Shown here: piece by piece, positions 3,659-62,493 of the stretch
Layout of the letters: every line of letters starts with the position of its first letter
Numbering within the stretch: position 1 is the stretch's first letter
Virus record (IMG/VR): IMGVR_UViG_3300045988_155182
Length of the DNA: 64,000 nt
Reading direction: 5' to 3' (one strand)
Origin: a virus
Taxonomy: Duplodnaviria; Heunggongvirae; Uroviricota; Caudoviricetes
Made by a program: the position numbers and the translations under genes
The notes under the pieces: model-generated
What the model was told of the DNA's origin: nothing
What the model saw: the letters and a program-made list of their open reading frames with translations, nothing else
Database searches by the model: none

Positions 3659-3674
3659 GTAAGTACATACTTAC
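3659..3674. repeat. GTAAGTA-N2-TACTTAC palindrome (first of at least 16 copies)
   Basis: gtaagtacatacttac; family recurs upstream of many genes across the window. Confidence 0.55.
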
Positions 3675-3717
3675 TATCATAGAATATAAAAATAACCAAA
3701 ACACTACGGAGAGTGAA

Positions 3718-4113
3718 ATGACCGTTAAACGCGAAAAACTGACAGTTGATGTTTACTATGCCTCTGAAACCGCCGAAGGTAAGAATGTGGCAAAAATCAC
3801 CGTTGTTACGTACAACACCGAAACTGGTGCCGAAGTCCAGGCCAGTACGATCGTGCGTAAAGGTGATGCCTCCGACGGCGAGTACGCGACTCAATACCAG
3901 TCTATTTTCGATGCAACTGACCCGCTGCTGCTGAAAATCGAGAACTACTTCCGCCAGGTTGATGAAGAGGTGTTTGAAACCATGATGAATATGGTTAACA
4001 CCGTATTCGCCTCCAACCTGAATACCAACACTGCCTGGATTGGTCAGTACGGCCTGCGCATTACCTCTGGCATTCCTGCCGACACCTTAATCCCTGAAAG
4101 CGTATTCGCTTAA
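3718..4113 (+). CDS. Hypothetical protein (132 aa)
   Basis: ORF track 3652..4113; ATG at 3718 preceded by GGAGAG; lies between a terminator and the next terminator. Confidence 0.5.
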   Translation: MTVKREKLTVDVYYASETAEGKNVAKITVVTYNTETGAEVQASTIVRKGDASDGEYATQYQSIFDATDPLLLKIENYFRQVDEEVFETMMNMVNTVFASNLNTNTAWIGQYGLRITSGIPADTLIPESVFA

Positions 4114-4121
4114 TCCTCTTT

Positions 4122-4150
4122 AAATGGCGCGTAAACCGCGCCATTTTATT
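4122..4150 (+). terminator. Rho-independent terminator (atggcgcg-taaac-cgcgccat + TTTT)
   Basis: Seen directly. Confidence 0.6.
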
Positions 4151-4157
4151 AAGCCCG

Positions 4158-4175
4158 ATAACAATTTGTTTTCTG
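4158..4175 (+). promoter_or_regulatory. Early operator palindrome (ataacaatttgttttctg)
   Basis: Motif family member upstream of the 4231 gene. Confidence 0.45.
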
Positions 4176-4230
4176 CCTTATCTGATTTGTGAAAATGATT
4201 TCACTGAAGCAACTTAATAAGGAAACCATC

Positions 4231-4605
4231 ATGGGACTTGATATCTATATCGAGACACAGCCTAAAAACGATCTGAATAACGAGGCATCCAGAAAGCAGG
4301 TTGCTTACTTCCGTAAGTTCAATGCGCTCGTTGGGTGGATGGAGCGCAACGTAGGTGAAGTCGAAAATTGTGAGCTTTTAGAATTAACGATGAATGACAT
4401 TTGTTTTCTGAAGGCTCATTTGATGCACATAAACGAAAGTAATTGCGAAGAGTACTTGCCTACCCGGGAAGGTTTTTTCTTCGGCAGTCAGGAGTACGAT
4501 GAAGGTTACTGGCATGATGTGGGGCAGTTGAAAGAGCTTGTGGAAGATCTGATTAAGAACCACGACTTTCACAATAACAGACTGACCTTCTGCGCCTGGT
4601 GGTAA
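4231..4605 (+). CDS. Hypothetical early protein
   Basis: ORF track 4189..4605; ATG at 4231 has AAGGA 7 nt upstream (the 4189 start is also possible). Confidence 0.45.
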   Translation: MGLDIYIETQPKNDLNNEASRKQVAYFRKFNALVGWMERNVGEVENCELLELTMNDICFLKAHLMHINESNCEEYLPTREGFFFGSQEYDEGYWHDVGQLKELVEDLIKNHDFHNNRLTFCAWW

Positions 4606-4607
4606 AT

Positions 4608-4751
4608 ATGGGCGATTTCAAGAAACGCCTGAAGGAAAGAGCCGAGATGGTCAGAAAGCAAAACGCCTCTTCTGTCATCAGATACGCAAGGCAGTTTAGT
4701 CGCAACAACAAATCAGTTGAGGAAAAGATCCTTAGCGTAATCGGGCGATAA
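4608..4751 (+). CDS. Small basic protein (47 aa), translationally coupled to the upstream gene
   Basis: ATG 3 nt after the upstream stop, open to TAA at 4749-4751; below the ORF-track size cutoff. Confidence 0.3.
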   Translation: MGDFKKRLKERAEMVRKQNASSVIRYARQFSRNNKSVEEKILSVIGR

Positions 4752-4756
4752 TTATT

Positions 4757-4780
4757 AAGGCCACCAGCATTGGTGGTCTT
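4757..4780 (+). terminator. Hairpin aaggccaccagcattggtggtctt (copy 1 of a repeated hairpin element)
   Basis: Near-identical hairpin at 5228-5251; no clear T-run, so it may be a processing or REP-like element rather than a terminator. Confidence 0.4.
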
Positions 4781-4889
4781 AAATGACTTTTAATAACCGA
4801 AGGTTAGTTTGAAACCTGGCTATCAACTTCCAGAACCTTTCTTGTGTATTCAGCCTGTATTAACTTCTTTTATGCCTTATCTACACTGC

Positions 4890-4923
4890 GATAATTACAC
4901 CAACAAGAAAACAACATGTTTAC
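4890..4923 (+). promoter_or_regulatory. Conserved early promoter/operator cassette (copy 2)
   Basis: cgataattacaccaacaagaaaacaacatgtttac. Confidence 0.5.
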
Positions 4924-4940
4924 GCAGTGAGGATATGCTC

Positions 4941-5222
4941 ATGACTGATTTCACCATTACCCCTAAAGCACAAAATGTATTCCTTGAATCATGGCTGGAC
5001 TTGCCGGAAACAGAACAGCAAGAAATGGATCATGTGGATTATGACGAGCAGGTAAGCACGCGATTCTTCCACTTTGAGGGATGCGTTTACGACATTGCCG
5101 ACTTCATGCGAGATGACCGCTTCCCTGAATGGCACGCAAGCTATCCACTAAACGCCTTTGCCATGCTGATGATCCGTGTGGATGATTCAGGGGATACCAT
5201 CGACATCGGTCTGCTCCACTAA
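4941..5222 (+). CDS. Hypothetical small acidic early protein (94 aa)
   Basis: ORF track 4809..5222; ATG at 4941 has GAGGA about 8 nt upstream; the upstream part of the track ORF overlaps the promoter cassette. Confidence 0.5.
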   Translation: MTDFTITPKAQNVFLESWLDLPETEQQEMDHVDYDEQVSTRFFHFEGCVYDIADFMRDDRFPEWHASYPLNAFAMLMIRVDDSGDTIDIGLLH

Positions 5223-5227
5223 AGATT

Positions 5228-5251
5228 AAGGCCACCAATGCTGGTGGCCTT
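5228..5251 (+). terminator. Hairpin aaggccaccaatgctggtggcctt (copy 2)
   Basis: Seen directly. Confidence 0.4.
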
Positions 5252-5375
5252 AAATGACCATCCTGTTTCCCGCAGGCTAAAAACACCAACCTCTTACCTC
5301 CAGGCAACCGACAAACCCACCTGTTCCCGTCCGGCTACCTCAACTTTCCACTTTGACGCCTTATTCATACAACGA

Positions 5376-5409
5376 TAATTAACACCAACAAGAAAACAAT
5401 TTGTTATTT
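5376..5409 (+). promoter_or_regulatory. Conserved early promoter/operator cassette (copy 3)
   Basis: cgataattaacaccaacaagaaaacaatttgttattt. Confidence 0.5.
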
Positions 5410-5426
5410 ACGATAAGGAATTAATC

Positions 5427-5909
5427 ATGAATTTTATCGCTACTGTAAACGCACCCGCACATGGCAATATCGCTGTAACGTTCTCTGACATTGAAAAACG
5501 AGTACTTGGTGCATGGCGCGACAATGAGACGGTAGAACTGTCAGCACAAGAAAAATGCATTATTGCACGCGACATCATTGGCAATCGTCGTTACTCGCGG
5601 GTATTTGAGAAAGCGTATGTGGTAAATTCTGGGTTCGGAACGTTCGTCTTTCCGGTGCGCTCAGGGCGATTCTGCCAGTCCAAGCTGATTGAGTTCGCTA
5701 CGCAGATTTCTGTCTGGATTAAAACTCAATCGTCGTTCAAATTTTCCGACGATGAAGCAGTATCGCAGGGGATGCGGATCGCCAACAATGCGATTAAATG
5801 CAAAAACATTACGTATACCGCTGGCGTTGATACATGGAAACTGTTTTGCGCTAACTTTATGCTGAATGTATACGCAAGCAACCGCATCCACATCCTTGAT
5901 GGCGTGTAA
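5427..5909 (+). CDS. Hypothetical protein (160 aa)
   Basis: ORF track; AAGGA upstream of the ATG. Confidence 0.55.
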   Translation: MNFIATVNAPAHGNIAVTFSDIEKRVLGAWRDNETVELSAQEKCIIARDIIGNRRYSRVFEKAYVVNSGFGTFVFPVRSGRFCQSKLIEFATQISVWIKTQSSFKFSDDEAVSQGMRIANNAIKCKNITYTAGVDTWKLFCANFMLNVYASNRIHILDGV

Positions 5910-5915
5910 CTGAGA

Positions 5916-5939
5916 AGAGGGCCAGAAACGGCCCTTTCT
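5916..5939 (+). terminator. Hairpin gagggcc-agaaac-ggccctttct
   Basis: Seen directly after the 5427..5909 gene. Confidence 0.5.
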
Positions 5940-5958
5940 CTATAGCCACCAGCTGCCG

Positions 5959-6039
5959 CAGGGAAATTTTCAGAAACGGCGAGGAACGCATTCATGAGCC
6001 GACGGGGAACGGCCAGGATTTTTTCGGGAAACGGCTGCA
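5959..6039. repeat. Iteron-like cluster 2 (cagggaaatttt, cagaaacggcgagg, cggggaacggccagg, tcgggaaacggctgc)
   Basis: Same repeat family as cluster 1; last two units about 22 bp apart. Confidence 0.5.
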
Positions 6040-6164
6040 TTCGCCTTTATATAGAAAAAACATCGGGAAGCTGGTGGAATCCAACCAGCGGTTGTCGGAC
6101 AGGTGAGCGGGGAAAATTATGATGACTTTCGTCGCCTGAGACATCCAGATTTCTTTCGTAGCGT

Positions 6165-6208
6165 AATCACATATGTGATTAAGTGGTGTGATTATGTGAA
6201 AAATCACG
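6165..6208. promoter_or_regulatory. Operator-like palindromes (aatcacatatgtgatt; tgtgattatgtgaaaaatcacg)
   Basis: Perfect 14 bp palindrome plus related half-sites in a large intergenic region; seen directly. Confidence 0.4.
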
Positions 6209-6494
6209 CGCACATAATACGCGAGCGGATACGGAACAAAACAAAATGCCGATCCGCGCCGACAATTAAACGCGGATCACATAGCAAGAATAAAAGCCAA
6301 TGATTAACCATACACCATAGCGCAATATAACGCGTTTTAAGCGCGTTAATGTGTTGAGTAATGGGTATGTACTGGTAAGGATATAAAAGCGCGTCTGTGG
6401 CGTTATTTTGGCGCTTATTTTATGTTGTTGGAGTGAGTCAAAGACAATAAAAAAGCGCCATCATTGGCGCGTTATGGTGGAAGTATTAGAAACG

Positions 6495-6529
6495 AAAAAA
6501 GCGCCCATAGTGGGCGCTCGATTTTATTT
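6495..6529. terminator. Bidirectional terminator (gcgcccatagtgggcgc flanked by A-run and T-run)
   Basis: Same 17 bp hairpin repeated at 6772-6788. Confidence 0.55.
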
Positions 6530-6754
6530 ATGTAAACTGATTTCAAATCCCATTTCTACAAACGCTTTTAACATTAAAAATATATCAGCGTCATTCACGT
6601 CTGCTTTTTTTCGCTCCTGGTCGCTCAATAAGTCAATTTTGCGCGTCGTTTCATCGATAAACTCGACTGCGCGCCCAGCGTAACCAGCGATCCCAGCGAT
6701 GCGATTAACAAAATATTCATTGCGCACGTTAACGCCAGCGATAAGAATAAACAT
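6524..6754 (-). CDS. Small hypothetical protein (76 aa) bracketed by two copies of one terminator hairpin
   Basis: ORF track; AAGGAG 7 nt upstream of the ATG on the minus strand. Confidence 0.35.
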   Translation of the reverse strand: MFILIAGVNVRNEYFVNRIAGIAGYAGRAVEFIDETTRKIDLLSDQERKKADVNDADIFLMLKAFVEMGFEISLHK

Positions 6755-6765
6755 GATTAAGCTCC

Positions 6766-6790
6766 TTAAAAGCGCCCATAGTGGGCGCCA
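6766..6790 (-). terminator. Terminator for the 6802..7452 gene (gcgcccatagtgggcgc + T-run on minus strand)
   Basis: Seen directly. Confidence 0.5.
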
Positions 6791-6801
6791 GATTCCATTA
6801 A

Positions 6802-7452: not shown

Positions 7453-7735
7453 GATAATTTTTCCTTATGTAAATTTAAAATTTATTGTCGTTAGCGTCTT
7501 CGCTTTCGACGAGTTCAATTATCGATATGCGAAAAAAGATTGCAAGTGTTTTTTTAAATTTTTTTGCAGGGATGAAAGTCCTAGAAATAAAAGCGAGATC
7601 GTCGAAGGTGTTCCCTAAATAAATAATCGATTCCGGCTTTAGACCTTATATATATTTAGGTTATTTGATTTATAGATATAAAGAAGTGATGTGAAAAATA
7701 ATAACCGGACTTAGCCGGTTATTAACCTTATAGAT

Positions 7736-10952: not shown

Positions 10953-10972
10953 AATAAGTAAGTGATTACTTA
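10953..10972. repeat. TAAGTA palindrome variant (ataagtaagtgattacttag) in divergent promoter region
   Basis: Seen directly. Confidence 0.45.
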
Positions 10973-11671
10973 GTGGATTGTAGCAATAAAATGGATGTAA
11001 AAATCACGATTTTGCAGGTTGATGTTGCCAACCTTCGCCCGAATACCTGGAACACCAATTCGGTTGGTGCGCAGAATTTTGAAAAACTGAAAGGTTCTAT
11101 CGAAAAATTGGGCTTTTTTAAGCCAATTTTGGCTCGTGAACTTGAAGATGGATTTTTTGAAATCCTCGGCGGCGAACATCGCTGGCGTGCTGCTATTGAG
11201 CAAGGAATTTCAACGGTTCCGGTGCTTTCTGTGGGCAAAATTAGCGATGTCGTAGCTAAACAGATGTCACTGGTGGACAACGAGCGATACGGTGAAGACG
11301 ATCAAATCGCATTGCAACGCTTCATTGAAGAAATTCAGTCAGAACTTGACTATCAACTGTCTGAAATCGCCCCGTATGACGACGAAATCTCGATGGTTTT
11401 AGCAAAAGAGGCGGCAATCGACCTTGAAGCACTGGAGGCATTGTCTCGTGGTAGTGATGAGCCTGTCGATACCGACAAACGAGAGAAAACCGAACGTGTG
11501 GGTGCGGAACATCAGACCATGCGCTTCAAAGTAACCTTCGATGCGTCAGATCGTGTTGCAGAAACCATAAAAAACATCATCAAAGAGCAGGCTATTAACA
11601 CCGGTAATGAAATGGAGAACGCTGGTGAGGCTCTGGTGTGGCTGGTCGACTACTACAAGGAGCGTATGTAA
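10973..11671 (+). CDS. ParB/Srx N-terminal-domain protein 1
   Basis: GGEHRWRAA matches the ParB GxxRxxA box. Confidence 0.7.
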   Translation: MDCSNKMDVKITILQVDVANLRPNTWNTNSVGAQNFEKLKGSIEKLGFFKPILARELEDGFFEILGGEHRWRAAIEQGISTVPVLSVGKISDVVAKQMSLVDNERYGEDDQIALQRFIEEIQSELDYQLSEIAPYDDEISMVLAKEAAIDLEALEALSRGSDEPVDTDKREKTERVGAEHQTMRFKVTFDASDRVAETIKNIIKEQAINTGNEMENAGEALVWLVDYYKERM

Positions 11672-14992: not shown

Positions 14993-16248
14993 TGGCAATC
15001 CCGTCCTCGCTCAGTCTTGTGCAACTGCATTCTGGACAGATGAAAGTCTTCCAGTCTCCGCATCGATTTAAAGTTGTTTGTGCTGGTCGACGCTGGGGAA
15101 AATCCCGGTTGTCGATCTCCACTATTATTCGTGCGGCGGCAAAGGAAAAAAAGCAAAGAGTCTGGTATGTCGCTCCTACTTACCAGATGGCTCGCCAGAT
15201 TTTGTGGGACGATCTACAGGAAGTTCTGCCTCGTAAGTGGGTTAGGAAAAAGAACGACACCACGATGACAATCGTGTTGAAGAACGGTTCGGAGATCGCC
15301 CTCAAAGGTGCTGATAAGCCTGACACTCTGCGCGGCGTAGCGTTGCATTTTGTAGTGCTTGATGAATTTCAGGATATGAAGGCTGACACCTGGTACAAGG
15401 TGTTACGACCTACTCTTTCATCGACACGCGGCGGTGCACTGATCATTGGTACGCCAAAAGGCTTCTCGGAATTTCACAAACTGTGGACTATAGGCCAGAA
15501 CGTAGAGCTGCAAAGAAAGGGACAGTGGAAGAGCTGGCAGTTTGTAACTGCCGATTCTCCGTTTGTACCTACGGCGGAAATTGAAGCTGCTAAGAACGAT
15601 ATGGACCCGAAATCGTTCGCTCAGGAGTACCTGGCGAGCTTTGAGAACATGTCCGGGCGCGTTTACTACCCGTTCGATCGTAACGTGCATGTAAAACCGC
15701 TTCAGTTCAACCCTCGGTTGCCTATATGGGTAGGGCAGGACTTCAACATTGACCCGATGTCTTCAGTAATTTTGCAACCTCAGCCAAATGGTGAGCTATG
15801 GGCAATTGATGAATTGGTGCTCTTTTCCTCTAACACGGCAGAGGTTTGTGATGAGCTTGAGAGACGCTTCTGGCGCTGGAAATCACAGATAACGGTATTT
15901 CCAGATCCGGCAGGTGCTTATCGCCAACATGCTCGCGGGGAGTCTGACGTCGACATATTCAAAGAGAAGGGATTCTTACGTGTCGATTATTCGAAAAAGC
16001 ACCCGCCAATTGCGGATCGTGTTAATGCTGTTAACCGAATGCTGATGACCGCATCTGGAGATATCCGGCTGTATATCGATCCGAAGTGCAAGCATTTGAT
16101 TGATTCACTGGAAAAAGTCATCTACAAGCCTGGAACACGAGATATGGATAAGACAGGTGGCATTGAGCATAGTGCAGACGCATTGGGCTATCCAGTACAT
16201 CGTAGGTATCCAGTCAAAAACCGTGTTATTCTTGGTGGTTCTCGATAG
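14992..16248 (+). CDS. Terminase large subunit
   Basis: Walker A-like VVCAGRRWGKS, Walker B VVLDEF; gene order. Confidence 0.8.
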   Translation: MAIPSSLSLVQLHSGQMKVFQSPHRFKVVCAGRRWGKSRLSISTIIRAAAKEKKQRVWYVAPTYQMARQILWDDLQEVLPRKWVRKKNDTTMTIVLKNGSEIALKGADKPDTLRGVALHFVVLDEFQDMKADTWYKVLRPTLSSTRGGALIIGTPKGFSEFHKLWTIGQNVELQRKGQWKSWQFVTADSPFVPTAEIEAAKNDMDPKSFAQEYLASFENMSGRVYYPFDRNVHVKPLQFNPRLPIWVGQDFNIDPMSSVILQPQPNGELWAIDELVLFSSNTAEVCDELERRFWRWKSQITVFPDPAGAYRQHARGESDVDIFKEKGFLRVDYSKKHPPIADRVNAVNRMLMTASGDIRLYIDPKCKHLIDSLEKVIYKPGTRDMDKTGGIEHSADALGYPVHRRYPVKNRVILGGSR

Positions 16249-16267
16249 GTAAGTAATTATCTAAGGT
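16245..16267. repeat. TAAGTA palindrome variant (gataggtaagtaattatctaagg)
   Basis: Seen directly. Confidence 0.45.
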
Positions 16268-16274
16268 TATTCAA

Positions 16275-17849
16275 ATGGAATTGAACGACAAACAAATTAA
16301 GGATCTGGTGGCGCGACGCCACCCGGAATACGAAAAGAAAAAAGAACATTGGGACTTCCTCGCCAGCACTTACGCTGGCGGGCGTGGTTGGTTTACAGAC
16401 AATATCTTTCGTTACTTTAAAGAGGGAGATCAGGAGTTTAAGGAGCGAGTTGAACGTGCTTATCGCTTCAACCACACTCGTGAGGTGGTAAACCTCATCA
16501 ACAAATATCTCTTTAAAGAAGACATTCATAGAAATATCGAAGAGGCACCAGAGCAGATCCGCAATTTCTGGAAACGTGCGACTCGCCAGAATGCCTCTAT
16601 TGACTCATTTATGGCCGCTATTGATTTGCAGTCGTCTATTTACGGTCGCATATGGGTTGTTGTCGATAGCACGATGAGTGGTGATGTTGAGTCAGTAGCT
16701 GACGAGAAAAAGAAAGATGCTCGCGCCTACGCCTACTGGATTTCACCTCAGCAAATGCTGGATGTGGCATGGGACGACGACGGGAATATGTTGTGGGCGT
16801 TAATTGTGGAAGTCGCTCGTGATGACGCAGATCCTTTTACTTCTACAGGTCAGGAATACCAACGTTATCGTCTGTGGACACAAAACGAGTGGTATCTGTT
16901 CCGTGAGGAAGTGAAGAAGGGCGCTGGTGGAGCAGGTCGCCGTCAGGCAAAAGTTATTTTAGAGGATAGCGGTGAGCATAATCTCGGCGTAGTTCCTGTG
17001 TTTCCTGTTGATTGTATTGGAGAAAGTGAATCACCGTATTTCAGCCCATCGTTGATCGATGATATCGCTTATCTTGATCGTGCGGTTGCAAACTATCTGT
17101 CAAACCTTGATGCCATTATTCAGGATCAGACATTTAGCCAGTTGGCTATACCGGTACAGTCGCTTTTACCTGGTGATGAAAACCACACTAAAGTGCTTGA
17201 AATGGGCACAAAGCGAGTCTTCACCTACGATTCTGAAGGTGGAAACCAGCCGTTTTATCTGTCACCAGACCCGAAACAAGCTCAGATGATCATCACTACG
17301 ATTAAGACGGTGATTAACGAAATCTACCATTCAGTTGGTGTAGCTGGTGAGCGAACGAAGCAGGACAACGCACAGGGAATCGATAATTCATCTGGTGCCG
17401 CAAAAATGTATGACTTCCAGCGTGTAAATAGCTTGCTTGTCACAAAAGCAGAGCGTCTGGAAAGGGCTGAACGCCAAATCATGCTACTGGTTGCGAAATG
17501 GATGGGGGTAGATCTGGACGAAGACCACTCTTTAATTGCATATCCAGAAAGTTTCGATATTCGTGGCCTTACTGATGAATTTTCTGTTGCCGAGAAACTG
17601 TCATTACTTCAGGCACCGGACTCTGTACGTCGTCACCAGATGGAAATGCTTATTGAGAAGATTTTCCCGAACATTACTGAGGCGATGAAAAAGGAATTTG
17701 ATAAAGATCTCTTGAATTTTCCTCCAAAAAATGATCTAAATACCCTTGAAAATAAGTCAGTACTTACTTATGATCGTGGTGCAGCCCAAGAAAGCGGGCA
17801 AGATCAACCCCGAGGGAATGGGGACTCATCTACTCAAGAGAACGAGTGA
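16275..17849 (+). CDS. Portal protein (524 aa)
   Basis: Size and position directly after terminase large. Confidence 0.7.
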   Translation: MELNDKQIKDLVARRHPEYEKKKEHWDFLASTYAGGRGWFTDNIFRYFKEGDQEFKERVERAYRFNHTREVVNLINKYLFKEDIHRNIEEAPEQIRNFWKRATRQNASIDSFMAAIDLQSSIYGRIWVVVDSTMSGDVESVADEKKKDARAYAYWISPQQMLDVAWDDDGNMLWALIVEVARDDADPFTSTGQEYQRYRLWTQNEWYLFREEVKKGAGGAGRRQAKVILEDSGEHNLGVVPVFPVDCIGESESPYFSPSLIDDIAYLDRAVANYLSNLDAIIQDQTFSQLAIPVQSLLPGDENHTKVLEMGTKRVFTYDSEGGNQPFYLSPDPKQAQMIITTIKTVINEIYHSVGVAGERTKQDNAQGIDNSSGAAKMYDFQRVNSLLVTKAERLERAERQIMLLVAKWMGVDLDEDHSLIAYPESFDIRGLTDEFSVAEKLSLLQAPDSVRRHQMEMLIEKIFPNITEAMKKEFDKDLLNFPPKNDLNTLENKSVLTYDRGAAQESGQDQPRGNGDSSTQENE

Positions 17850-19659: not shown

Positions 19660-19669
19660 TCAGTGAAGT

Positions 19670-19685
19670 AGATAAGTAATTATCT
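19670..19685. repeat. AGATAAGTAATTATCT palindrome
   Basis: Seen directly. Confidence 0.5.
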
Positions 19686-19693
19686 ATGTTAAA

Positions 19694-23238: not shown

Positions 23239-23245
23239 CTCAATT

Positions 23246-23262
23246 GGTAAGTATATACTTAC
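23246..23262. repeat. GTAAGTA-TA-TACTTAC perfect palindrome
   Basis: ggtaagtatatacttac. Confidence 0.55.
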
Positions 23263-23312
23263 TATTAGCGCAATGAATGCGTAGAATTAACGGAAAAAGG
23301 AGTTTTCCATCA

Positions 23313-29744: not shown

Positions 29745-29770
29745 TGGATAAGTAAGTACTAATTTACTAT
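29745..29770. repeat. TAAGTA palindrome variant (ggataagtaagtactaatttactatc)
   Basis: Seen directly. Confidence 0.45.
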
Positions 29771-29821
29771 CATTGTGGCGCTGACAGGATGTTAGCGCCT
29801 ACTTATTTCAAGGATGAAACA

Positions 29822-36636: not shown

Positions 36637-36669
36637 TGGTGGAAAAAAAATTTTATATCGGTAAAAATA

Positions 36670-36686
36670 GGTAAGTATTTACTTAA
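36670..36686. repeat. GGTAAGTA-TT-TACTTAA palindrome
   Basis: Seen directly. Confidence 0.5.
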
Positions 36687-36729
36687 TGGCGGGCAAGGAT
36701 AACCCGCCAAATCAAGGAGCATATTCAAC

Positions 36730-42670: not shown

Positions 42671-42718
42671 GGGGCAGATTATATCTGCATTATTAACAAC
42701 GATTAGTTTGCAAGATAT

Positions 42719-42742
42719 ATAGTAGGTAAGTACATACCTACT
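42719..42742. repeat. TAGTAGGTAAGTACATACCTACTA palindrome
   Basis: Seen directly. Confidence 0.5.
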
Positions 42743-42791
42743 ACAAATGGTTAAAATATGATATAAACACGCCATCCCGATTTGACTTTTC

Positions 42792-48566: not shown

Positions 48567-48588
48567 AATAAGTAAGTAACTACCTATC
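48567..48588. repeat. TAAGTA palindrome variant (aataagtaagtaactacctatc)
   Basis: Seen directly. Confidence 0.45.
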
Positions 48589-48599
48589 TGGTGAGCCAC

Positions 48600-52000: not shown

Positions 52001-52022
52001 AATAAGTAGATGATTACTTATC
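52001..52022. repeat. GATAAGTA-N6-TACTTATC palindrome
   Basis: aataagtagatgattacttatc. Confidence 0.5.
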
Positions 52023-52062
52023 TTTCTGTGAGAATACTTTCATCTGTTAGCTAGGAGTTGGT

Positions 52063-52871: not shown

Positions 52872-52895
52872 GATAGGTAAGTACAAGATTATTTA
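52872..52895. repeat. TAAGTA palindrome variant (gataggtaagtacaagattattta)
   Basis: Seen directly. Confidence 0.4.
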
Positions 52896-53377
52896 TGGCG
52901 GTAGTTGTGAAAGCTGATTTGTCAAAAATCCCTTCTATTTCAGGAAATAACGGTTATTCACTTCGTTGTGAGGAAGTAAAGATAAACGGTGAGTCGGCAT
53001 ATTGCAGCTACTCCGTATGCCAGCACACCATTCTTGCCTTCAAAGAAAACCGTCTTCCTCGAACGTCTTTCCAGTCGTGCGCAACCGCTATTAAAGCAGG
53101 CAAATGCAAGGCGTTAAAAATGATGGTTGAAGAGATTCGTAAAGGAGAATCTCTGTATTTCGAAGATATGACCGCACTCATTAAGGAGGTTGAAGAACGG
53201 AATAAACAAGCCAGAACTATAAAACGAAAACGTGACAGTGTAACGATTAATAGCATGGTTAAGAAGAGCGCCACATCACAAACAGCGATCACTGACGTGT
53301 ATGCGGCGTTGATTGAAGAAACAACAAAAGAAACACATGAGCAAATCGATCAACATATGGAGGCAAAACAACAATGA
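52895..53377 (+). CDS. Hypothetical Cys-containing protein (160 aa)
   Basis: ORF track. Confidence 0.5.
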   Translation: MAVVVKADLSKIPSISGNNGYSLRCEEVKINGESAYCSYSVCQHTILAFKENRLPRTSFQSCATAIKAGKCKALKMMVEEIRKGESLYFEDMTALIKEVEERNKQARTIKRKRDSVTINSMVKKSATSQTAITDVYAALIEETTKETHEQIDQHMEAKQQ

Positions 53378-55344: not shown

Positions 55345-55353
55345 AATTACAAT

Positions 55354-55375
55354 GATAAGTATTTACTTACTTATC
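55354..55375. repeat. GATAAGTA-TTTACT-TACTTATC palindrome
   Basis: Seen directly. Confidence 0.5.
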
Positions 55376-57758: not shown

Positions 57759-57780
57759 ATAAGTTACTACATACTTATCA
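57759..57780. repeat. TAAGTA palindrome variant (aataagttactacatacttatc)
   Basis: Seen directly. Confidence 0.45.
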
Positions 57781-57846
57781 AAAAAATCTGTTTGTAGTAT
57801 AGTCTGATATGTTCGAATCAATATTTATAAAGGTATTTGTTAAGTT

Positions 57847-58125: not shown

Positions 58126-58172
58126 ACCAAACTCACTCCCATTTCCCTTAAAATTCAAAAAACAACGTCAAA

Positions 58173-58205: not shown

Positions 58206-58302
58206 CTGAAAATGAGTTACTTTTACTCTTGATCCTATAAGAATCTATGCCTAATATACTGTTTACTTATACAGTGCATCGGCGTAACTCGGTGATTGTC
58301 AT

Positions 58303-59406
58303 ATGAAAAATAGCTTTGACAGAGCACGCGCTGCGGAGAACACCTCAAAAGAGGCGATAGAGTATCTCGAAAGAGCATCTCAAATGCAGGCCGTTATGAT
58401 CTCCCAGGTCAGCAATGACATGAGATTCTCGGACGCATTCATGTTATTCACTCGCTTATCTCTGCTGATAACCAGACGTCGGCCAGAGATCGCTGTTCAT
58501 TGTATTTTGATACATGTTTTGCCGCACATTGCCGATGTAAAAGTAAGTGACATTAATAGGTTCATGGTGAACCAACTGGTCAACCCACTAATACTGGATG
58601 GCAAAATTGTTATGGGCCGCCGCGTTTTCTCTCTGATGAAGCAGTTCCTTAGCTGGTGCGCCTTCCAGGGGATGATAGACGTGTCACCGTTGAACGATAT
58701 GTCACTTAACAAAGTTGCCGGTGGCGCAAAGCCCACACCTCGCGAGCGGAAGCTGACCGACGCAGAGGTATGGGTGTTCTGGAATATATGGGACTACTTC
58801 AATGTGTGTGCTGGTACAAAATGGGCGGCCAGGCTATGTCTTGTATCCGCAAGACGACCTGACGAAGTACTGCGGGCTAAAAAAAGTGAGTTCAATCTTA
58901 AGCGTGGGGTTTGGAATCAAGGCAAGAGGAACAAATCTGCCCGTGAGCATTCTCTGCCTTTAAGCTCATTAATGCGCACTTGTATTGAAGAGTTGTTCGA
59001 ATATGGTAAAGACAGCCAGTGGCTCGTGCCTTCGAATAAAAAAATCGGGAAAGACCTTCCTATGTCTAAAGTGGCAATAGCCCAGGCATTACGTCGTATT
59101 CTGGAACGACCAGAACTGATGGAGCTTGAGCCATTTACACCCCGAGATTTGCGCCGTACTGCGCGTAGTTACTTCCCAGCATTAGGCATAAGCCAGGAGG
59201 TATCACGTAAAATCATGAACCACAGTCTTGAGGGGATAGATCGGGTCTACGACCGGCACGATTATATGGACGAGATGCGAGACGCCTTAGAAAGTTTCTC
59301 GACGTACATCGCATCAATCGTAGAGCAACCGGATTTAGACGAAATTGACCACAAATTTAAGGGAGATCGTCTATCAACAGAGCTTATTCGTGTAAATTTT
59401 TCATAG
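58303..59406 (+). CDS. int: Tyrosine-type integrase/recombinase
   Basis: C-terminal catalytic pattern (RDLRRTARSYF ... HSLEGIDRVYDRHDY) consistent with the R..H..R..Y tyrosine recombinase signature. Confidence 0.8.
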   Translation: MKNSFDRARAAENTSKEAIEYLERASQMQAVMISQVSNDMRFSDAFMLFTRLSLLITRRRPEIAVHCILIHVLPHIADVKVSDINRFMVNQLVNPLILDGKIVMGRRVFSLMKQFLSWCAFQGMIDVSPLNDMSLNKVAGGAKPTPRERKLTDAEVWVFWNIWDYFNVCAGTKWAARLCLVSARRPDEVLRAKKSEFNLKRGVWNQGKRNKSAREHSLPLSSLMRTCIEELFEYGKDSQWLVPSNKKIGKDLPMSKVAIAQALRRILERPELMELEPFTPRDLRRTARSYFPALGISQEVSRKIMNHSLEGIDRVYDRHDYMDEMRDALESFSTYIASIVEQPDLDEIDHKFKGDRLSTELIRVNFS

Positions 59407-59787
59407 AGACTTTATGGCCTCAACAACCTTTTGTGATGCGCCTTTCTCTTTACCGAATCGCTCGTTATATGCAGCAAGAACCTGTTTTTCGTCCTCGTTA
59501 AGAGGAGCAGTGCCTTCTTTGTATAAAAATGCTGCGAGTTCGGGTTGGCGTTCTTCCAGCACCATCATCATAAGACGACTTGGCTCAATGCCCAGTGCCA
59601 GCGCCAGCGGACGAACCTTATCGATAGGCAAAGGAATTTTGCCGCTTTTAATTAAAGAAAGGTTGTTGGCGTTTTTATACCCAATTGTTTTGGCTATCTG
59701 GGCCTGGCTCATAGGTGAGGATTCAATCAACCCTGCGATAAAAGCAGCGTAGCGACTTTCTATAAATTCAATCTTGTTATCAGACAT
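59401..59787 (-). CDS. XRE-family HTH transcriptional regulator (cI/Cro-like)
   Basis: HTH-like QAQIAKTIGYKNANNLSLIKSG; convergent with and overlapping the integrase 3' end. Confidence 0.65.
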   Translation of the reverse strand: MSDNKIEFIESRYAAFIAGLIESSPMSQAQIAKTIGYKNANNLSLIKSGKIPLPIDKVRPLALALGIEPSRLMMMVLEERQPELAAFLYKEGTAPLNEDEKQVLAAYNERFGKEKGASQKVVEAIKSL

Positions 59788-60038
59788 GGTTACAACCTTT
59801 GCGCGTTCAATTCTCTCTGGTAAGTGCTTACCGATATTACATCAAAGGTTAGGGTTGTAAAGCTATTATCATTTTTTTCGATAGGCACTTAAAAGACCGG
59901 TTAAAGGCCATTGCACGGAGAAAAATTAGCCCAAAACAGGTAAGAAAATCAACTTGCATATGATATGAATGTATTCAGTATTGATACAAATTTTAGTAGT
60001 ATTCCTTACCATAGTATAAGTTAGAATGGATTGATTGA

Positions 60039-60251
60039 ATGAACACCACTATTTCCAGCCTAATCGCTCTTGAGATCGGACACGTACAGAAATTAGCTGA
60101 TGAGTGTGTAGCTGACATCCTCACCGATCTACCGAATGAGCAGATTCAGGTTGGTGTGAATGACACAACTGGATTTATATTCGAACTTAACAACAAACGC
60201 TTCACGCTTCTCAATACCGGCTCCGGGTCTTTAGCCGTCAGAATCTGTTAA
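60039..60251 (+). CDS. Small hypothetical protein (70 aa)
   Basis: ORF track; followed by a GC hairpin. Confidence 0.4.
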   Translation: MNTTISSLIALEIGHVQKLADECVADILTDLPNEQIQVGVNDTTGFIFELNNKRFTLLNTGSGSLAVRIC

Positions 60252-60317
60252 CCCCTCTTCTCCCTGCGCGAATGGCTTAGTTCCCTGTTCGCGCAGTGCT
60301 ACATTAAACACACTAGT

Positions 60318-60332
60318 AAATAATTTGTTTTC
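60318..60332 (+). promoter_or_regulatory. Operator half-site variant (aaataatttgttttc)
   Basis: Motif family member upstream of the vWA gene. Confidence 0.35.
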
Positions 60333-60349
60333 ATAACAAAGGATTAGCC

Positions 60350-62458
60350 ATGTCTAAAAAACGTTCCATCAAAGAGGTTCAGGACTTCCGTGACAGTGTA
60401 AAACGAGTAGTCGCTCTCCTTTCAGGTAAAAACATCCCTGTTGCAGAACGAGGGGACGACGCTTATGTACGCTATAACGATGATGGAGAGCCAATTCTCG
60501 TAAACATCCCATCAATCCCGGATAACGCAACACCGGCATTGATGAATGCTGTGCGCGGATTTCTCGATCATGAGGTTGCTCACATTTTGTTTACCGATAT
60601 TCGTGTGTCCAACAAAATGAGAGAAAAAGGACGCGTTCCTTCCTGGTCGCTATGGAATGCCTTAGAAGACGTGTTCATCGAGCGAAAAATGGGTCAGGTC
60701 TTTAACGGAACAAGACGTAATCTGATGGCAACTCAGCGCCTTATAATCGAAAAAGTCTTTAAACCAAAGGCTTCAGAGGCTATTGCTTATTGTGGCAAAG
60801 ATCAGCGCGCGCTTTTTCTAAACTTCTTTCTCTGTCCGGTTGTAAGAGCCTGGGATGGCCAAGCACCGTTCGTAGACTTCATGGATGAATATTGGCCTGT
60901 CATTGAGAAACCAATTTCATTATTAAAAGAACATGGTATCGATGTGGCCGTGCGTAACATGTCTTGCACCGAGGATTGTGTAAAGGTGGCTGCGACCATA
61001 GCTAAGATCCTCAAAGACACTGAAAGTGAAAGCAAAGGTAAGGAGTCAGCTCCGGGAAAAACTTCCGATCCTTCAGACGCTGACCAGACGGATGCCTCTG
61101 GAGAAAACAATGAAGACAACGAAGATCATGAGACACCCTCATCGTTAGATAATCACAAATCTATTAAATCAGAGTCACATAGTAAGTACAAACATGATAA
61201 TAACGACAGTGATGACTCAGATAATCCTGAATCATCAGAAACAATATTCGATGATACAGAAAATGATAAAGCGGTATCAGATTCTGATGCTTCTGATAAC
61301 GCGGCGTCAGAATCATTAACCGCTGACCACGAAAAAAGAAAAACGACAGAAGACGGCTCTTCAGACATTCCAACTCCGTCAAAAATGAGTCTGGAAGAGG
61401 CTTTAGAGGAGTTGGATAGCATGGAAGATGAAGTCGGAGGCATGACAGAAGATGCGCTATCCGAAACGATTAAAAGCGAGTTAACAGAAAGCTCGAAAAG
61501 CGAATACAGGCCATACAATCGCTCATACGACTTCATCGGCTCGATTGATCAGGCAGAAGCCCATATCAAACGGCTTATTAAAACATTCTCCGATATTGAT
61601 TTAGGTGGATATCCAATCAGCCGTTATCGCATCGTTCCTGAAGGCAACCAACTCTTCGACAAATATATTGAAAAGCACCTTTCGTCAGGTGTTTCGTCGA
61701 CGCTGGCAAAAGACCTGGAACGTGCAATAGCAAGCAGAAACAGAGTTCAGTTTATACCTGGCCAGCGTCGGGGGCGCATTCATGGTTCAAGTATCTACAG
61801 ATTAACAATGAATGATGATCGCGTGTTTCGTAAAAAAGAAGAATCTAAAGCCGTTAACGCCTGTGTTCAACAAGTGATTGATTTATCGGGTTCAATGAGT
61901 GGCGAAACGATAAAACTAGCTCTTGCAAGTGCATATACCATCGCCGATGCACTTGATCGAATAAATGTTCCCAACATTATCACCGGCTTCACTACATTTG
62001 GCAGTCATATGGCAGCAGGAGAACTTAAGGCTATCAAATATGAGTTCTCTCGCTTTGAATCTTTAATGCTACCTATCATCAAAAATTGGAATGAAAAAGC
62101 AAATTCTCGCGAAGTTCGCTCACGTATGGGGTGCGTAGGCTACACATTCCCACTTCTTAATAACGTGGATGGTGAAAGCATAGCCAGCCTTGCATCGTTA
62201 TTTTCCGGTCGCTTGGAGGACAGGAAGATCATGCTTGTTCTGAGCGATGGCGCGCCGTGGGCTGTTGGGAGAGGTTTTGACGCCCATTTGCGGTCGGTTA
62301 CGAAGCAAATTGAAACGCAGACTGACATTGATTTGATGGCAATTGGCATCATGACTGATGCACCGGAGAGATTTTACGCAAATCATGCCCTGGTAACTAG
62401 TGTTGATAGTCTTGGTTCATCTGTAGTTACTGAACTATCTCGTATCATTTTGAAATAA
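60350..62458 (+). CDS. CobT-like protein: N-terminal domain, long acidic Asp/Glu/Ser-rich linker, C-terminal vWA domain
   Basis: MIDAS-like DLSGSMSG in the C-terminal third; very acidic low-complexity middle; paired with downstream AAA+ ATPase. Confidence 0.6.
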   Translation: MSKKRSIKEVQDFRDSVKRVVALLSGKNIPVAERGDDAYVRYNDDGEPILVNIPSIPDNATPALMNAVRGFLDHEVAHILFTDIRVSNKMREKGRVPSWSLWNALEDVFIERKMGQVFNGTRRNLMATQRLIIEKVFKPKASEAIAYCGKDQRALFLNFFLCPVVRAWDGQAPFVDFMDEYWPVIEKPISLLKEHGIDVAVRNMSCTEDCVKVAATIAKILKDTESESKGKESAPGKTSDPSDADQTDASGENNEDNEDHETPSSLDNHKSIKSESHSKYKHDNNDSDDSDNPESSETIFDDTENDKAVSDSDASDNAASESLTADHEKRKTTEDGSSDIPTPSKMSLEEALEELDSMEDEVGGMTEDALSETIKSELTESSKSEYRPYNRSYDFIGSIDQAEAHIKRLIKTFSDIDLGGYPISRYRIVPEGNQLFDKYIEKHLSSGVSSTLAKDLERAIASRNRVQFIPGQRRGRIHGSSIYRLTMNDDRVFRKKEESKAVNACVQQVIDLSGSMSGETIKLALASAYTIADALDRINVPNIITGFTTFGSHMAAGELKAIKYEFSRFESLMLPIIKNWNEKANSREVRSRMGCVGYTFPLLNNVDGESIASLASLFSGRLEDRKIMLVLSDGAPWAVGRGFDAHLRSVTKQIETQTDIDLMAIGIMTDAPERFYANHALVTSVDSLGSSVVTELSRIILK

Positions 62459-62473
62459 TTAAAACAGCCTTAA

Positions 62474-62493
62474 TGATAAGTAACTACTTATCA
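62474..62493. repeat. TGATAAGTA-AC-TACTTATCA perfect palindrome
   Basis: Seen directly. Confidence 0.55.

Follow-up and report, generated by a model that had tools for sequence, protein, structure and literature searches.

What acts at the short palindromes that precede both the early-type genes (replication, recombination, nucleotide metabolism) and the head, tail and lysis genes of a phage-plasmid? The window, that is, the whole stretch of 64,000 nucleotides analysed here, is an SSU5-like phage-plasmid of E. coli and is 97-99% identical to the E. coli phage-plasmid Cyrano/pLF82. An earlier note had listed 16 copies of a palindrome and had proposed that they form a genome-wide regulon, as a middle/late promoter element or an attenuator, bound by a dimeric factor that might be the small protein encoded at 13898-14164. 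All 16 listed coordinates carry a sequence of TAAGTA/TACTTA type, and the palindrome family is present far beyond chance. The nature of the site, its relation to promoters and the identity of the binding protein are addressed below.

Definition of the site

Taken literally, the pattern GATAAGTA-N(0-10)-TACTTATC has only two occurrences in the window, at 55354 and 62475. The degenerate core TARGTANNTACYTA, in turn, gives 17 matches with at most one mismatch (0.25 expected) and 30 with at most two (4.3 expected), and a weight matrix trained on 11 sites finds 15 clusters with a score of at least 14, where a shuffle yields 0.15 positions. In fact the repeated unit is a 24-bp pseudo-palindrome of fixed geometry, AWWRR-TARGTA-NN-TACYTA-YYWWT, and all sites fit 11-nt arms around a fixed 2-nt centre, ATAGGTAAGTA-NN-TACTTACCTAT. 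The spacer of 1-6 bp described earlier is thus only apparent: the arms have an internal 4-nt periodicity (TAAG-TAAG-TA), and because of it spacers of 2 or 6 can be read. Thirteen of the 16 listed copies are full sites and one (52872) is a half-site, while those at 14210 and 48440, thought to be copies embedded in a palindrome of about 55 bp, are instead the centres of a separate palindrome family, CCTGCWTCTGTATAT...ATATACGGAAGCAGG, with three copies per genome. The half-sites of that family lie 3 bp closer and out of register, and score only 11-14 on the matrix. One site, at 17748-17771 in the 3′ end of the portal gene, was missing from the list.

Base preferences are equal in both half-sites, and conservation is strongest for particular bases, T at −6 in 71/71 sites and T at −2 in 69/71, rather than for pairings. 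Watson-Crick pairs between the arms number 538, which is no enrichment over shuffles (583±11), and G·T mismatches are about as frequent as A·C mismatches (83 and 88), so that no strand-specific tolerance of G·U is seen. Arms without covariation or compensatory mismatches argue for a double-stranded DNA site of a dimeric protein and not for a hairpin; the attenuator is abandoned on the same grounds, and the regulon with a dimeric factor gains from them. The factor that recognizes the palindrome is presumably a symmetric, dimeric DNA-binding protein. Judged from the sequence, the repeated palindrome is a real 24-bp protein-binding site that stands at operon starts, about 28 times per genome.

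Placement and conservation

The 15 copies in the window (14 of them intergenic) and the weak copy at the repressor promoter are as follows.

Site A, 3655..3678: TATTGTAAGTA-ca-TACTTACTATC, directly past a terminator; overlaps the predicted promoter TTGTAA-17-TAGAAT (3657-3685), with a gene start downstream at 3718.
Site B, 10954..10977: divergent region between a UvsW-like helicase gene (minus strand) and the first ParB_N-domain gene (ATG 10991); kept in the IMG/VR loci.
Site C, 16245..16268: fills the 26-nt gap from the terL stop (16248) to the portal ATG (16275), 19 nt from the ATG.
Site D, 17748..17771: inside the 3′ end of the portal gene, exactly the spacer of TTGAAA-17-TATGAT (17746-17774).
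Site E, 19668..19691: past the major-capsid stop codon, with a strong terminator (19692-19716) directly after.
Site F, 23243..23266: perfect core GTAAGTA-TA-TACTTAC; overlaps the predicted promoter TTGAAT-18-TATACT (23230-23259), with a covarying hairpin following, ahead of the tail-tube gene.
Site G, 29748..29771: ahead of the minor tail protein L gene; overlaps a promoter-like match (29745-29773), next to a covarying hairpin at 29777-29799.
Site H, 36667..36690: gap between the host-specificity protein J gene and the tail-fibre gene; a GC hairpin is next.
Site I, 42718..42745: two overlapping registers centred at 42729 and 42733; about 33 nt downstream comes a conserved extended −10, TGATATAAA, and then the holin gene.
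Site J, 48568..48591: 9 nt ahead of ATG 48600, the first gene of the helicase/primase block.
Site K, 52002..52025: weaker left half; a conserved extended −10 (TGTGAGAAT) starts about 19 nt from the centre.
Site L, 52873..52896: left half-site only; the right arm overlaps ATG 52895.
Site M, 55351..55374: exact GATAAGTA...TACTTATC copy; a conserved −10 (TAAGAT) starts 23 nt from the centre, and the site heads a tRNA-containing transcription unit.
Site N, 57759..57782: divergent intergenic region specific to the window; overlaps the predicted promoter TTATCA-17-TATAGT (57775-57803).
Site O, 62472..62495: the other exact copy, ahead of a cobS-like gene; the hexamer of a conserved extended −10 (TGGTATATT) is 21 nt away from the centre.
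Weak copy, 59816..59839: score 11.2, core GGTAAGTGCTTACC, directly downstream of the −10 of the predicted repressor promoter.
Predicted repressor promoter, 59861-59834, minus strand: TTTACA-16-TAATAT.

Membership of Site L is doubtful, since in Cyrano, SSU5 and pJN2-26 it does not reach the matrix cut-off (score 13). Each of these three genomes holds 27-28 sites, and those of SSU5 and Klebsiella pJN2-26 stand at orthologous positions, with core hexamers 89% identical to the window and flanks only 45%. Positions are also fixed in 48 IMG/VR loci, which carry 4.7 sites per 21.5 kb. In an Acinetobacter plasmid, a distant relative that is syntenic, 33 copies of a co-varied palindrome, CAGTCAGTACTGACTG, stand at equivalent places, and a −10-like TATACT abuts the downstream side only (11 against 1). 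The motif is not equally frequent in coding regions, since 25 of 26 Cyrano sites are intergenic in a genome with a non-coding share of only 13.1% (binomial P=2e-21). The sites do lie ahead of genes, as the earlier note held, although its distance of 20-60 bp was too narrow: in Cyrano the site centre is 10-173 nt from the next start codon.

Overlap with promoters and expression in the lysogen

Good sigma-70 promoters are few, and the sites overlap them in no constant register: a site may occupy the spacer, cover the −35 or cover the −10/+1. Six of the 36 plus-strand sigma-70-like matches in the window overlap the 15 sites, against an estimated 0.45 or so expected, and among 71 sites the promoter score is higher in the gene direction than in its mirror in 48 (Wilcoxon p=1.5e-4), with a register that varies between sites from about −45 to about +10. 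The promoter at Site D is near consensus (10/12 matches), is the best match in its region and would serve the scaffold and major-capsid genes. Site K covers the −35 region, as the extended −10 starts about 19 nt from its centre; a slight leak from the gene behind it is seen in the lysogen (43.7; background 9.8). No recognisable promoter was found at Sites C, E, H and J, and Site C may be a roadblock because a downstream promoter has no room. Terminator-like hairpins lie directly downstream of Sites E, G and V; the repressor-operator model does not require them. Overlap with promoters that need no activator, together with the lack of a fixed register, is the signature of repressor operators.

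In the published RNA-seq of the Cyrano lysogen (PMC9928086, S1 table) the first genes behind sites are at background in 22/24 cases. The expressed islands are toxin-antitoxin modules, the parA operon, repA and int/rep (PMC9928086), and these are without sites. Silent genes are not significantly enriched behind sites in that transcriptome (Fisher p=0.19), and expression in the lysogen is uncorrelated with site score (rho=−0.02). The lysogen transcriptome suits an activator-dependent model equally well.

The candidate binding protein

The binder is probably the 128-aa XRE/Cro-type HTH protein encoded on the minus strand at 59401..59787, next to the integrase gene, rather than the product of 13898-14164. 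It is 100% identical to Cyrano CYRAN_45 (tblastn), which the LF82 authors treated as the master repressor, and its gene is expressed in the Cyrano lysogen (95.8; PMC9928086). The structural model has an XRE/Cro-type HTH and matches 434 Cro and the controller protein C.AhdI with 1.5-1.9 Å over about 62 residues; the protein contains no S24 peptidase domain, and therefore induction would not proceed by self-cleavage. The protein is present in 865 PLSDB plasmids, its homologues being found inside the SSU5-like plasmid family only, and no other small DNA-binding candidate is as clearly kept in the Acinetobacter relative, where its identity is 48%; for the others conservation is not clear. Copies of the site lie at the promoter of its gene in every lineage examined. 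The weak copy at 59816..59839, kept in Klebsiella, Y. pestis pMT1, Kluyvera and Buttiauxella, is presumed to be its autoregulatory operator, and can also be read with an alternative spacing, GTAAG-N2-CTTAC. The 128-aa repressor is otherwise conserved wherever the motif family occurs; SSU5, which carries the full site set, gave no match to this gene nor to that of the adjacent integrase.

The 88-aa protein at 13898-14164 is not supported as binder: no family is assigned to it, its conservation in the Acinetobacter relative is only marginal, and its transcript in the Cyrano lysogen is at background (7.8 against 9.8; PMC9928086). A second dispersed palindrome, AAACAAnTTGTTT, implies at least one further regulator, and the assignment of repressor to motif could be swapped.

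Proposed model

We propose, with a probability of about 0.6, that the palindromes are dispersed operators of a dimeric prophage repressor that shuts off essentially every lytic transcription unit in the plasmid-prophage state. In the model, each unit (packaging, head, tail, lysis, replication, recombination and nucleotide metabolism) would start with one 24-bp site lying over the core of a sigma-70 promoter: between −35 and −10, across the −10/+1 or, at extended −10 promoters, on the −35; it is from this geometry that we infer repression. At the few sites in tiny intergenic gaps or just ahead of terminators, the bound protein could act only as a roadblock. The weak copy at the repressor's promoter would provide negative autoregulation.

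Alternative explanations

The sites could instead bind a phage activator of lytic promoters that lack a good −35, like the T4 MotA box or the Lpa-dependent late promoters of P1, with the winged-helix-like proteins of 13898-14164 or 54693-54908 as candidates. The window has fewer canonical −35/−10 promoters than expected (11 against 23, 20 against 32, 8 against 16.5), Sites K, M and O and the sbcD and ead sites of Cyrano lie at a similar distance from an extended −10, replacing the −35, and the genes behind sites are silent in a lysogen in which both candidates are unexpressed. The variable register, however, does not suit an activator, and several of the overlapped promoters, near consensus or with an extended −10, should fire unaided. 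Gaps such as those at Site C and at the Cyrano gene 60 site (10 nt) are too short for a downstream promoter, early-type and late genes are preceded by the same site, and the candidate genes, whose products have no family assignment, sit in operons themselves headed by a site. An activator is hence unlikely, as is the middle/late promoter element proposed earlier.

The sites may also be silencing operators or roadblocks for another protein, a reading that we hold to be rather improbable. One candidate is the 92-aa protein encoded on the minus strand at 9068-9346, whose sequence suggests a ribbon-helix-helix fold; it is expressed in the lysogen (114.5; PMC9928086) and occurs in 822 PLSDB plasmids, with a taxon profile identical to that of the 128-aa repressor. 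The operon of the 92-aa protein shares a promoter region, in which Site B lies, with the ParB-like operon; the latter encodes the other candidates, two ParB_N-domain proteins (10991-12339) that would act like KorB. KorB offers a precedent for binding to dispersed palindromic operators at variable promoter distance. The 92-aa protein, however, has an unreliable structural model (pLDDT 50.5), and no homologue of it was detected in the Acinetobacter relative, where sites of this kind are retained. In the ParB-like proteins only the ParB N-terminal domain gives a match, the remainder being without a recognisable HTH, and their lysogen transcripts are at background (5.0 and 9.5).

It is very unlikely that the palindromes are mainly module-boundary recombination sequences generating phage-plasmid mosaicism, with regulation secondary. 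Two breakpoints between the window and Cyrano do coincide with elements, at 42715 (left edge of Site I) and 48426 (left edge of a long palindrome), but most are located elsewhere, 24 bp is short for homologous exchange, and the symmetric base-specific conservation, the promoter overlap and the copy at the repressor promoter would be left unexplained; exchange at the sites more probably follows secondarily from the conservation of regulatory sequence. Hairpins, as RNA stem-loops (attenuators, RNase III sites, mRNA stabilisers) or DNA cruciforms, can practically be set aside: the sites are intergenic inverted repeats, often beside genuine hairpins or terminators, but their arms pair below shuffle expectation, the centre has only 2 nt and the stem would be AT-rich.

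Comparison with known systems

Repressor operators scattered over the genome, as preferred here, can be compared with those of P1, an enterobacterial plasmid prophage in which one repressor, C1, likewise has operators scattered over a genome of about 100 kb, both at lytic promoters and at the gene for C1 itself. P1 operators are asymmetric 17-mers, and C1 is not known to be of XRE type, whereas the present sites are 24-bp dyads with a 128-aa XRE/Cro-like HTH protein as candidate binder. Moreover, the late genes of P1 are under the separate activator Lpa, while in the present element head, tail and lysis genes have the same site in front of them as well. How C1 represses nearby promoters has been summarised (PMC8198154).

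Cluster A mycobacteriophages (L5, Bxb1) also have 20-30 repressor sites across the genome, some of them form extrachromosomal prophages with parABS, and motif and repressor co-vary between their lineages, as they do here between Enterobacterales and Acinetobacter. Some of their sites are operators within promoters and most block elongation; these stoperators are 13-14 bp long, without dyad symmetry and oriented with transcription (PMC6550527). The sites described here cannot be orientation-specific because they are symmetric, many overlap predicted promoters, and a roadblock is only a possibility for the promoter-less minority.

KorB, a ParB-family protein of the IncP plasmid RK2, is a global repressor with palindromic OB operators repeated around the plasmid at variable promoter distance, an arrangement resembling the present one, but its site sequence is unrelated and the ParB_N-domain proteins of the window are unexpressed in the lysogen. 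Lambdoid repressors of CI/Cro type (XRE; 434, P22 c2) share the dyad operators overlapping promoters, including one at the repressor's own promoter, and differ in having about six operators clustered in one immunity region rather than about 28 single operators dispersed over 108 kb.

No account of such operator control was found in the literature for the SSU5-like family, whose plasmids are clinically common. Control of this type, in which operators of a repressor silence lytic genes, is of a familiar kind, and in these phage-plasmids it would extend to essentially the whole lytic programme.

A single 24-bp site with a fixed centre

All 16 positions that the earlier note had listed as copies of a dispersed palindrome upstream of genes carry related sequence. 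The literal form described there, GATAAGTA-N(0-10)-TACTTATC, occurs only twice, and the variable spacer ascribed to it gives way to alignment on a fixed centre. Inverted repeats of 7 nt showed apparent spacers in two classes only, 2 and 6 nt, and once aligned on a fixed 2-nt centre the sites share a single architecture with 11-nt arms and the consensus ATAGGTAAGTA-NN-TACTTACCTAT; the illusion of a variable spacer arises because the arms are themselves 4-nt periodic (TARG-TAAG-TA). The core TARGTANNTACYTA is matched 17 times at up to one mismatch (0.25 expected) and 30 times at up to two (4.3 expected). In the window, a weight matrix trained on 11 sites picked out 15 clusters (0.15 positions per shuffle), four of which lie outside the training set; one of these four (17748-17771, site D) had been missed in the initial list. 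The copy at 52872 stands as a half-site (L, 52873..52896), not as a full site. The copies at 14210 and 48440, thought to be embedded in longer palindromes, are the centres of a separate family of about 55 bp, whose half-sites are spaced 3 bp more tightly and do not keep the register of the 24-bp site, and they were excluded.

Genome-wide distribution and conservation

The 24-bp sites constitute a real, conserved, genome-wide regulon. A 10-kb probe from the window is 99.5% identical to the E. coli phage-plasmid Cyrano (pLF82, OV696614), 81% identical to Salmonella phage SSU5 and about 78% identical to Klebsiella phage-plasmids. Whole-length alignment with Cyrano gives blocks at 96-99% identity, with Cyrano position 1 falling at window 14227 and the stretch before it (window 1-14226) matching the end of the Cyrano record. 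SSU5-related elements have been described as the largest supercommunity of phage-plasmids (PMC7969092), and Cyrano resides in E. coli LF82 as a plasmid prophage of about 5 copies that is inducible by ciprofloxacin (PMC9928086).

Comparison of the annotated records of Cyrano, SSU5 and Klebsiella pJN2-26 showed 28, 27 and 28 matrix clusters (score ≥13) in the complete genomes, at orthologous positions and at a density of roughly one per transcription unit, every 3-4 kb. Far from being equally frequent inside coding DNA, the sites of Cyrano are intergenic in 25 of 26 cases in a genome with only 13.1% of non-coding DNA (P=2e-21), the sole exception being located in the portal gene, 90 nt from its end. 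Conservation in related phages is likewise borne out by recurrence of the sites in SSU5, pJN2-26 and IMG/VR loci. Identity between the window and SSU5/pJN2-26 falls from 89% in the core hexamers to 58% in the outer arms and 45% in the 24-nt flanks. In 48 distinct IMG/VR loci centred on the portal gene, five fixed positions hold the sites at a density of 4.7 per 21.5 kb, and even the most divergent loci (69-72% portal identity) still have them.

The A. baumannii plasmid NZ_CP035046.1 (107 kb) is a distant relative, syntenic with SSU5-type elements over most of its length; the AB and SSU5 groups had already been linked through persistent genes in common (PMC7969092). The enteric motif is absent from this plasmid, which has a different palindrome, CAGTCAGTACTGACTG, with 33 copies at up to four mismatches against 1-7 in shuffles. 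This palindrome displays the 4-nt periodicity of the enteric site, and its copies, located at operon starts, occupy counterpart positions: between terL and portal, behind the capsid gene beside a terminator, in front of the holin gene, at parB and ahead of the repressor gene. A changed palindrome at equivalent places indicates that the system is old and that its specificity drifted from TAAG-type to TCAG-type repeats.

A probable site for a dimeric protein

The attenuator proposed in the earlier note, and any RNA hairpin or terminator, is rejected on covariation and wobble counts, which reveal neither compensatory change nor G·U tolerance. When 83 sites were pooled, the arms paired no better than after random re-pairing (538 Watson-Crick pairs, shuffles 583±11), and G·T and A·C mismatches were equally common (83 and 88). 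Both half-sites share the same base preferences, T(-6) being present in all 71 sites examined and G(-3) and T(-2) in nearly all. Symmetric preferences in arms that pair no better than chance are the pattern of a dimeric protein reading duplex DNA, and the idea of a dimeric factor is thereby supported. Judged by these base counts, the 24-bp palindromes are best described as duplex-DNA sites for a dimeric protein and not as RNA or DNA hairpins. The half-sites being symmetric, the site has no orientation.

Two further candidates were dismissed: the sequence lacks the CTG-N10-CAG of a host LexA site, and a 24-bp, intergenic-only site is unlike a methylase or restriction target.

Relation of the sites to promoters

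Sigma-70-like sequences are rare in the window, where a consensus scanner found fewer than in shuffles. Six of the 36 plus-strand matches overlap the 15 sites, compared with an estimated 0.45 or so by chance.

Sites in the window and predicted promoters
A, 3655..3678: predicted promoter TTGTAA-17-TAGAAT (consensus scanner)
C, 16245..16268: 19 nt before the portal ATG, with no room for a promoter
D, 17748..17771: predicted promoter TTGAAA-17-TATGAT (10/12 matches), the palindrome core exactly filling the spacer
E, 19668..19691: no recognisable promoter
F, 23243..23266: predicted promoter TTGAAT-18-TATACT (consensus scanner)
G, 29748..29771: overlapped by a plus-strand scanner match
H, 36667..36690: no recognisable promoter
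J, 48568..48591: no recognisable promoter
K, 52002..52025: over the -35 of a conserved extended -10 promoter
M, 55351..55374: over the -35 of a conserved extended -10 promoter
N, 57759..57782: overlapped by a plus-strand scanner match
O, 62472..62495: overlapped by a plus-strand scanner match; over the -35 of a conserved extended -10 promoter

Predicted promoters thus overlap sites A, D, F, G, K, M, N and O, and none is recognisable at C, E, H and J. By our own -35/-10 scoring, the overlapping promoters score better towards the gene than in the mirrored orientation at 48 of 71 sites (p=1.5e-4). The palindrome does not keep one register to the promoter: it may fall within the spacer, cover the -35 of a conserved extended -10 promoter (K, M and O, plus sbcD and ead) or coincide with the -10/+1 region. 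Strong terminators lie immediately downstream of sites E, G, V and W1 and immediately upstream of A, R, X and W2. In the Acinetobacter plasmid a -10-like TATACT directly adjoins about 40% of some 30 CAGTCAGTACTGACTG copies, and it does so downstream, not upstream (11 versus 1).

Two ways of building the promoter into the site were rejected. A -10 within the right arm (TAYYAT at +6) has its mirror image equally often on the other side (26 versus 28) and is therefore intrinsic to the palindrome and non-directional; a fixed distance to the -10 shows a modest excess only, at +21/+23 (13 versus 4), so that no single geometry exists. The earlier note had suggested a middle or late promoter element. 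Neither an activator site nor a special promoter element fits the variable register and the apparent self-sufficiency of the predicted promoters. A variable register within the RNA polymerase footprint, at predicted promoters that look strong enough to fire unaided, is instead the pattern of repressor operators, and we put the probability of this function at about 0.6. Acting through these sites, the prophage repressor would most likely silence every lytic operon.

Expression in the lysogen

Expression was taken from the per-gene table of the Cyrano lysogen of E. coli LF82 (PMC9928086), in which the background is 9.8. Twenty-two of the 24 first genes behind sites read 22 or less, with a median of 8.7, and the near-consensus promoter predicted at site D is silent (10.9). 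The expressed islands, namely the toxin-antitoxin pairs, the parA operon, repA, int/rep and CYRAN_43, have no sites. In this table silent genes are not significantly enriched behind sites (Fisher p=0.19) and site score does not correlate with expression (rho=-0.02), weak statistics that stem from almost everything being silent in the lysogen. Hence the transcriptome is compatible with repression, being neither proof nor test of it. A single anecdote agrees with it: the only site to have decayed in Cyrano, scoring 13.3 where its SSU5 and pJN2-26 counterparts score 20-21, lies in front of a gene read at 117.

The candidate repressor

Genes and elements considered
59401-59787 (-): 128-aa XRE-type protein, candidate repressor (CYRAN_45 in Cyrano)
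59861-59834: predicted repressor promoter, TTTACA-16-TAATAT
59816-59839: weak site copy directly after that promoter
60039-60251: equivalent of CYRAN_46, small 70-aa gene divergent from the repressor
9068-9346: 92-aa protein
13898-14164: 88-aa protein, the binder suggested in the earlier note

The 88-aa protein is not supported as the binder, its expression in the lysogen being at background level (7.8), as is that of a 71-aa protein (6.4) and of two ParB_N-domain proteins (5.0 and 9.5). For the latter two, a KorB/ParB-like role is disfavoured by this expression and by Pfam matches that are confined to ParB_N and leave a remainder with no recognisable HTH. The 92-aa protein is expressed at 114.5; its structure model is unusable (pLDDT 50.5). 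The 128-aa protein, expressed at 95.8 against the background of 9.8, is 100% identical (tblastn) to CYRAN_45, which the LF82 authors treat as the Cyrano master repressor (PMC9928086).

The AlphaFold2 model of the 128-aa protein shows an XRE/Cro-type five-helix HTH with a pLDDT of about 84 over residues 11-80. Foldseek matched it to C.AhdI, 434 Cro, SinR, HigA, Stl and a Salmonella phage repressor, all with E-values >1e-3; the Pfam HTH_19 match is below cut-off (19.7 versus 30.2), and PDB sequence searches with three small proteins returned nothing useful. Homologues occur in 865 PLSDB plasmids with the taxon profile of the family-specific 92-aa protein, and more than 800 plasmids with homologues of the 128- and 92-aa proteins come from Klebsiella, Escherichia, Enterobacter, Yersinia (pMT1) and Salmonella. 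In the Acinetobacter relative the 128-aa protein is clearly conserved (48% identity over residues 14-104) with a changed recognition helix, which reads KRPNVLSMIK there and KNANNLSLIK in the window, and no counterpart of the 92-aa or 71-aa protein was detectable there. The arrangement of the predicted repressor promoter and its weak site is kept in Klebsiella, Y. pestis pMT1, Kluyvera and Buttiauxella; at this promoter the site is doubled in tandem in a divergent Klebsiella lineage, and Acinetobacter has an analogous weak copy. In that Klebsiella lineage the repressor is 48% identical and both motif and recognition-helix residues are unchanged, so that the comparison does not discriminate. All 55 homologues found in a search for independent context of the repressor family lie in this same plasmid family, and a genome scan added only further in-family loci and one Lichenibacterium contig (34% identity) without comparable palindromes.

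A tblastn search of SSU5 for the integrase, the XRE repressor and the divergent 70-aa gene matched none of them, although its set of sites is complete. The segment without these genes is SSU5 42596-42761, compared with window 56765-60251, and SSU5 may be a virulent deletion derivative. If SSU5 grows lytically, the 128-aa protein is excluded as an activator.

The XRE protein is favoured by (i) its expression, fold and distribution; (ii) its conservation in Acinetobacter; (iii) the site at its own promoter; (iv) the situation in SSU5, and (v) the behaviour of the ParB-like proteins. We infer with roughly even odds that it binds the 24-bp palindrome. Its divergent neighbour CYRAN_46 rises from a log2 value of about 4.3 to about 10.8 in 6-h macrophage samples (LF82 data, column MB6), far above most genes, a behaviour that fits an early switch gene, Cro- or antirepressor-like.

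Other elements of the window

Additional features
85-97, 136-148, 2772, 3256-3268, 4159, 5394, 14282, 14307-14319, 45324-45336, 49352-49364, 60318: copies of a second dispersed palindrome, AAACAAnTTGTTT
14189-14245, 48427-48480: imperfect palindromes of about 55 bp with GC clamps, CCTGCWTCTGTATAT...ATATACGGAAGCAGG (third copy in Cyrano near 78071-78130)
23267-23281, 29777-29799, 36689-36710: hairpins directly after late-region sites F, G and H
8048-8608 (-): FljA homologue
42432-42630: Rfam IS009 match (189.6 bits)
2196-2480, 2393-2602: two overlapping ORFs, counterpart of CYRAN_104

Allowing one mismatch, the window has 13 copies of the palindrome AAACAAnTTGTTT where 0.35 would be expected; exact copies number 9-11 in each of the Cyrano, SSU5 and pJN2-26 genomes, and a search of the Acinetobacter relative gave none. 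An extended -10-like box precedes this palindrome by about 13 nt, and the ribosome-binding site of terS, parA, a dnaB-like helicase gene, a cobT-like gene or one of many small accessory genes follows closely; the family looks like a separate regulon. The palindromes of about 55 bp, three per genome and conserved in SSU5 and pJN2-26, could be packaging or replication sites or bidirectional terminators; the GenBank records of SSU5 and Cyrano both start right after the first copy. Two boundaries of segments diverging between window and Cyrano (42715 and 48426) coincide with the left edges of site I (42718..42745) and of a long palindrome, which suggests that these elements also act as recombination junctions. 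The hairpins after sites F, G and H keep their pairing through differing sequences in Cyrano, SSU5 and pJN2-26, that after site G with the conserved loop ACAGGATGT, and could be 5' stabilisers or leaky terminators.

The gene at 8048-8608 encodes a homologue of FljA, which represses phase-1 flagellin (Pfam Flag1_repress, E=4e-84); it is an accessory gene directed at the host and lies in a segment (7739-9092) that has no nucleotide alignment with Cyrano. The IS009 match falls within a tail-fibre-region ORF shortly before site I. CYRAN_104, a single 135-aa gene in Cyrano, corresponds in the window to the two overlapping ORFs, possibly through a frameshift.

Comparison with known systems and implications

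The P1 C1 operator is an asymmetric 17-bp sequence. As with C1, whose operators are dispersed over the prophage genome and located at the promoters of lytic genes, the sites described here are dispersed (15 copies in the window, 27-28 per genome) and, by promoter prediction, similarly placed; in contrast, they form a symmetric 24-bp dyad with the core TARGTA-NN-TACYTA, which makes the system P1-like in its working but outside the C1 family. Cluster A mycobacteriophages (L5/Bxb1) have 20-30 stoperators of 13-14 bp, without dyad symmetry and oriented with transcription, some in promoters and most blocking elongation (PMC6550527). Their number and their spread across early and late regions resemble what is seen here, whereas the present sites are symmetric and lack orientation. 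The symmetric dyad and the XRE-type candidate protein therefore place the system in neither family. Functionally, KorB/OB of IncP plasmids is analogous as well. In the literature searched, covering the family, its regulators and the sequences themselves, there was no description of the 24-bp motif and nothing on lysis/lysogeny control in SSU5-related elements. The concept is ordinary; for this large, clinically relevant plasmid family no published description was found.

It is conceivable, although we would sooner bet against it, that SSU5-type elements (among them S. Typhi pHCM2-like plasmids, Y. pestis pMT1 and Klebsiella/E. coli plasmids) and their Acinetobacter relatives share an ancient genome-wide silencing, in which one small XRE repressor would use about 30 dyad sites doubling as promoter operators and operon-boundary roadblocks, and repressor/site co-evolution (TAAG- versus TCAG-type) would define immunity groups. 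Such a system, if true, would be the Gram-negative, symmetric-site counterpart of the mycobacteriophage stoperators. The site map provides a ready-made map of operons and promoters and a concrete, testable repressor-operator hypothesis, and offers a means of predicting immunity groups, or of inducing or curing these plasmids. The logic of one repressor and many dispersed operators, known from P1 and L5, would thereby extend to a third, unrelated lineage.
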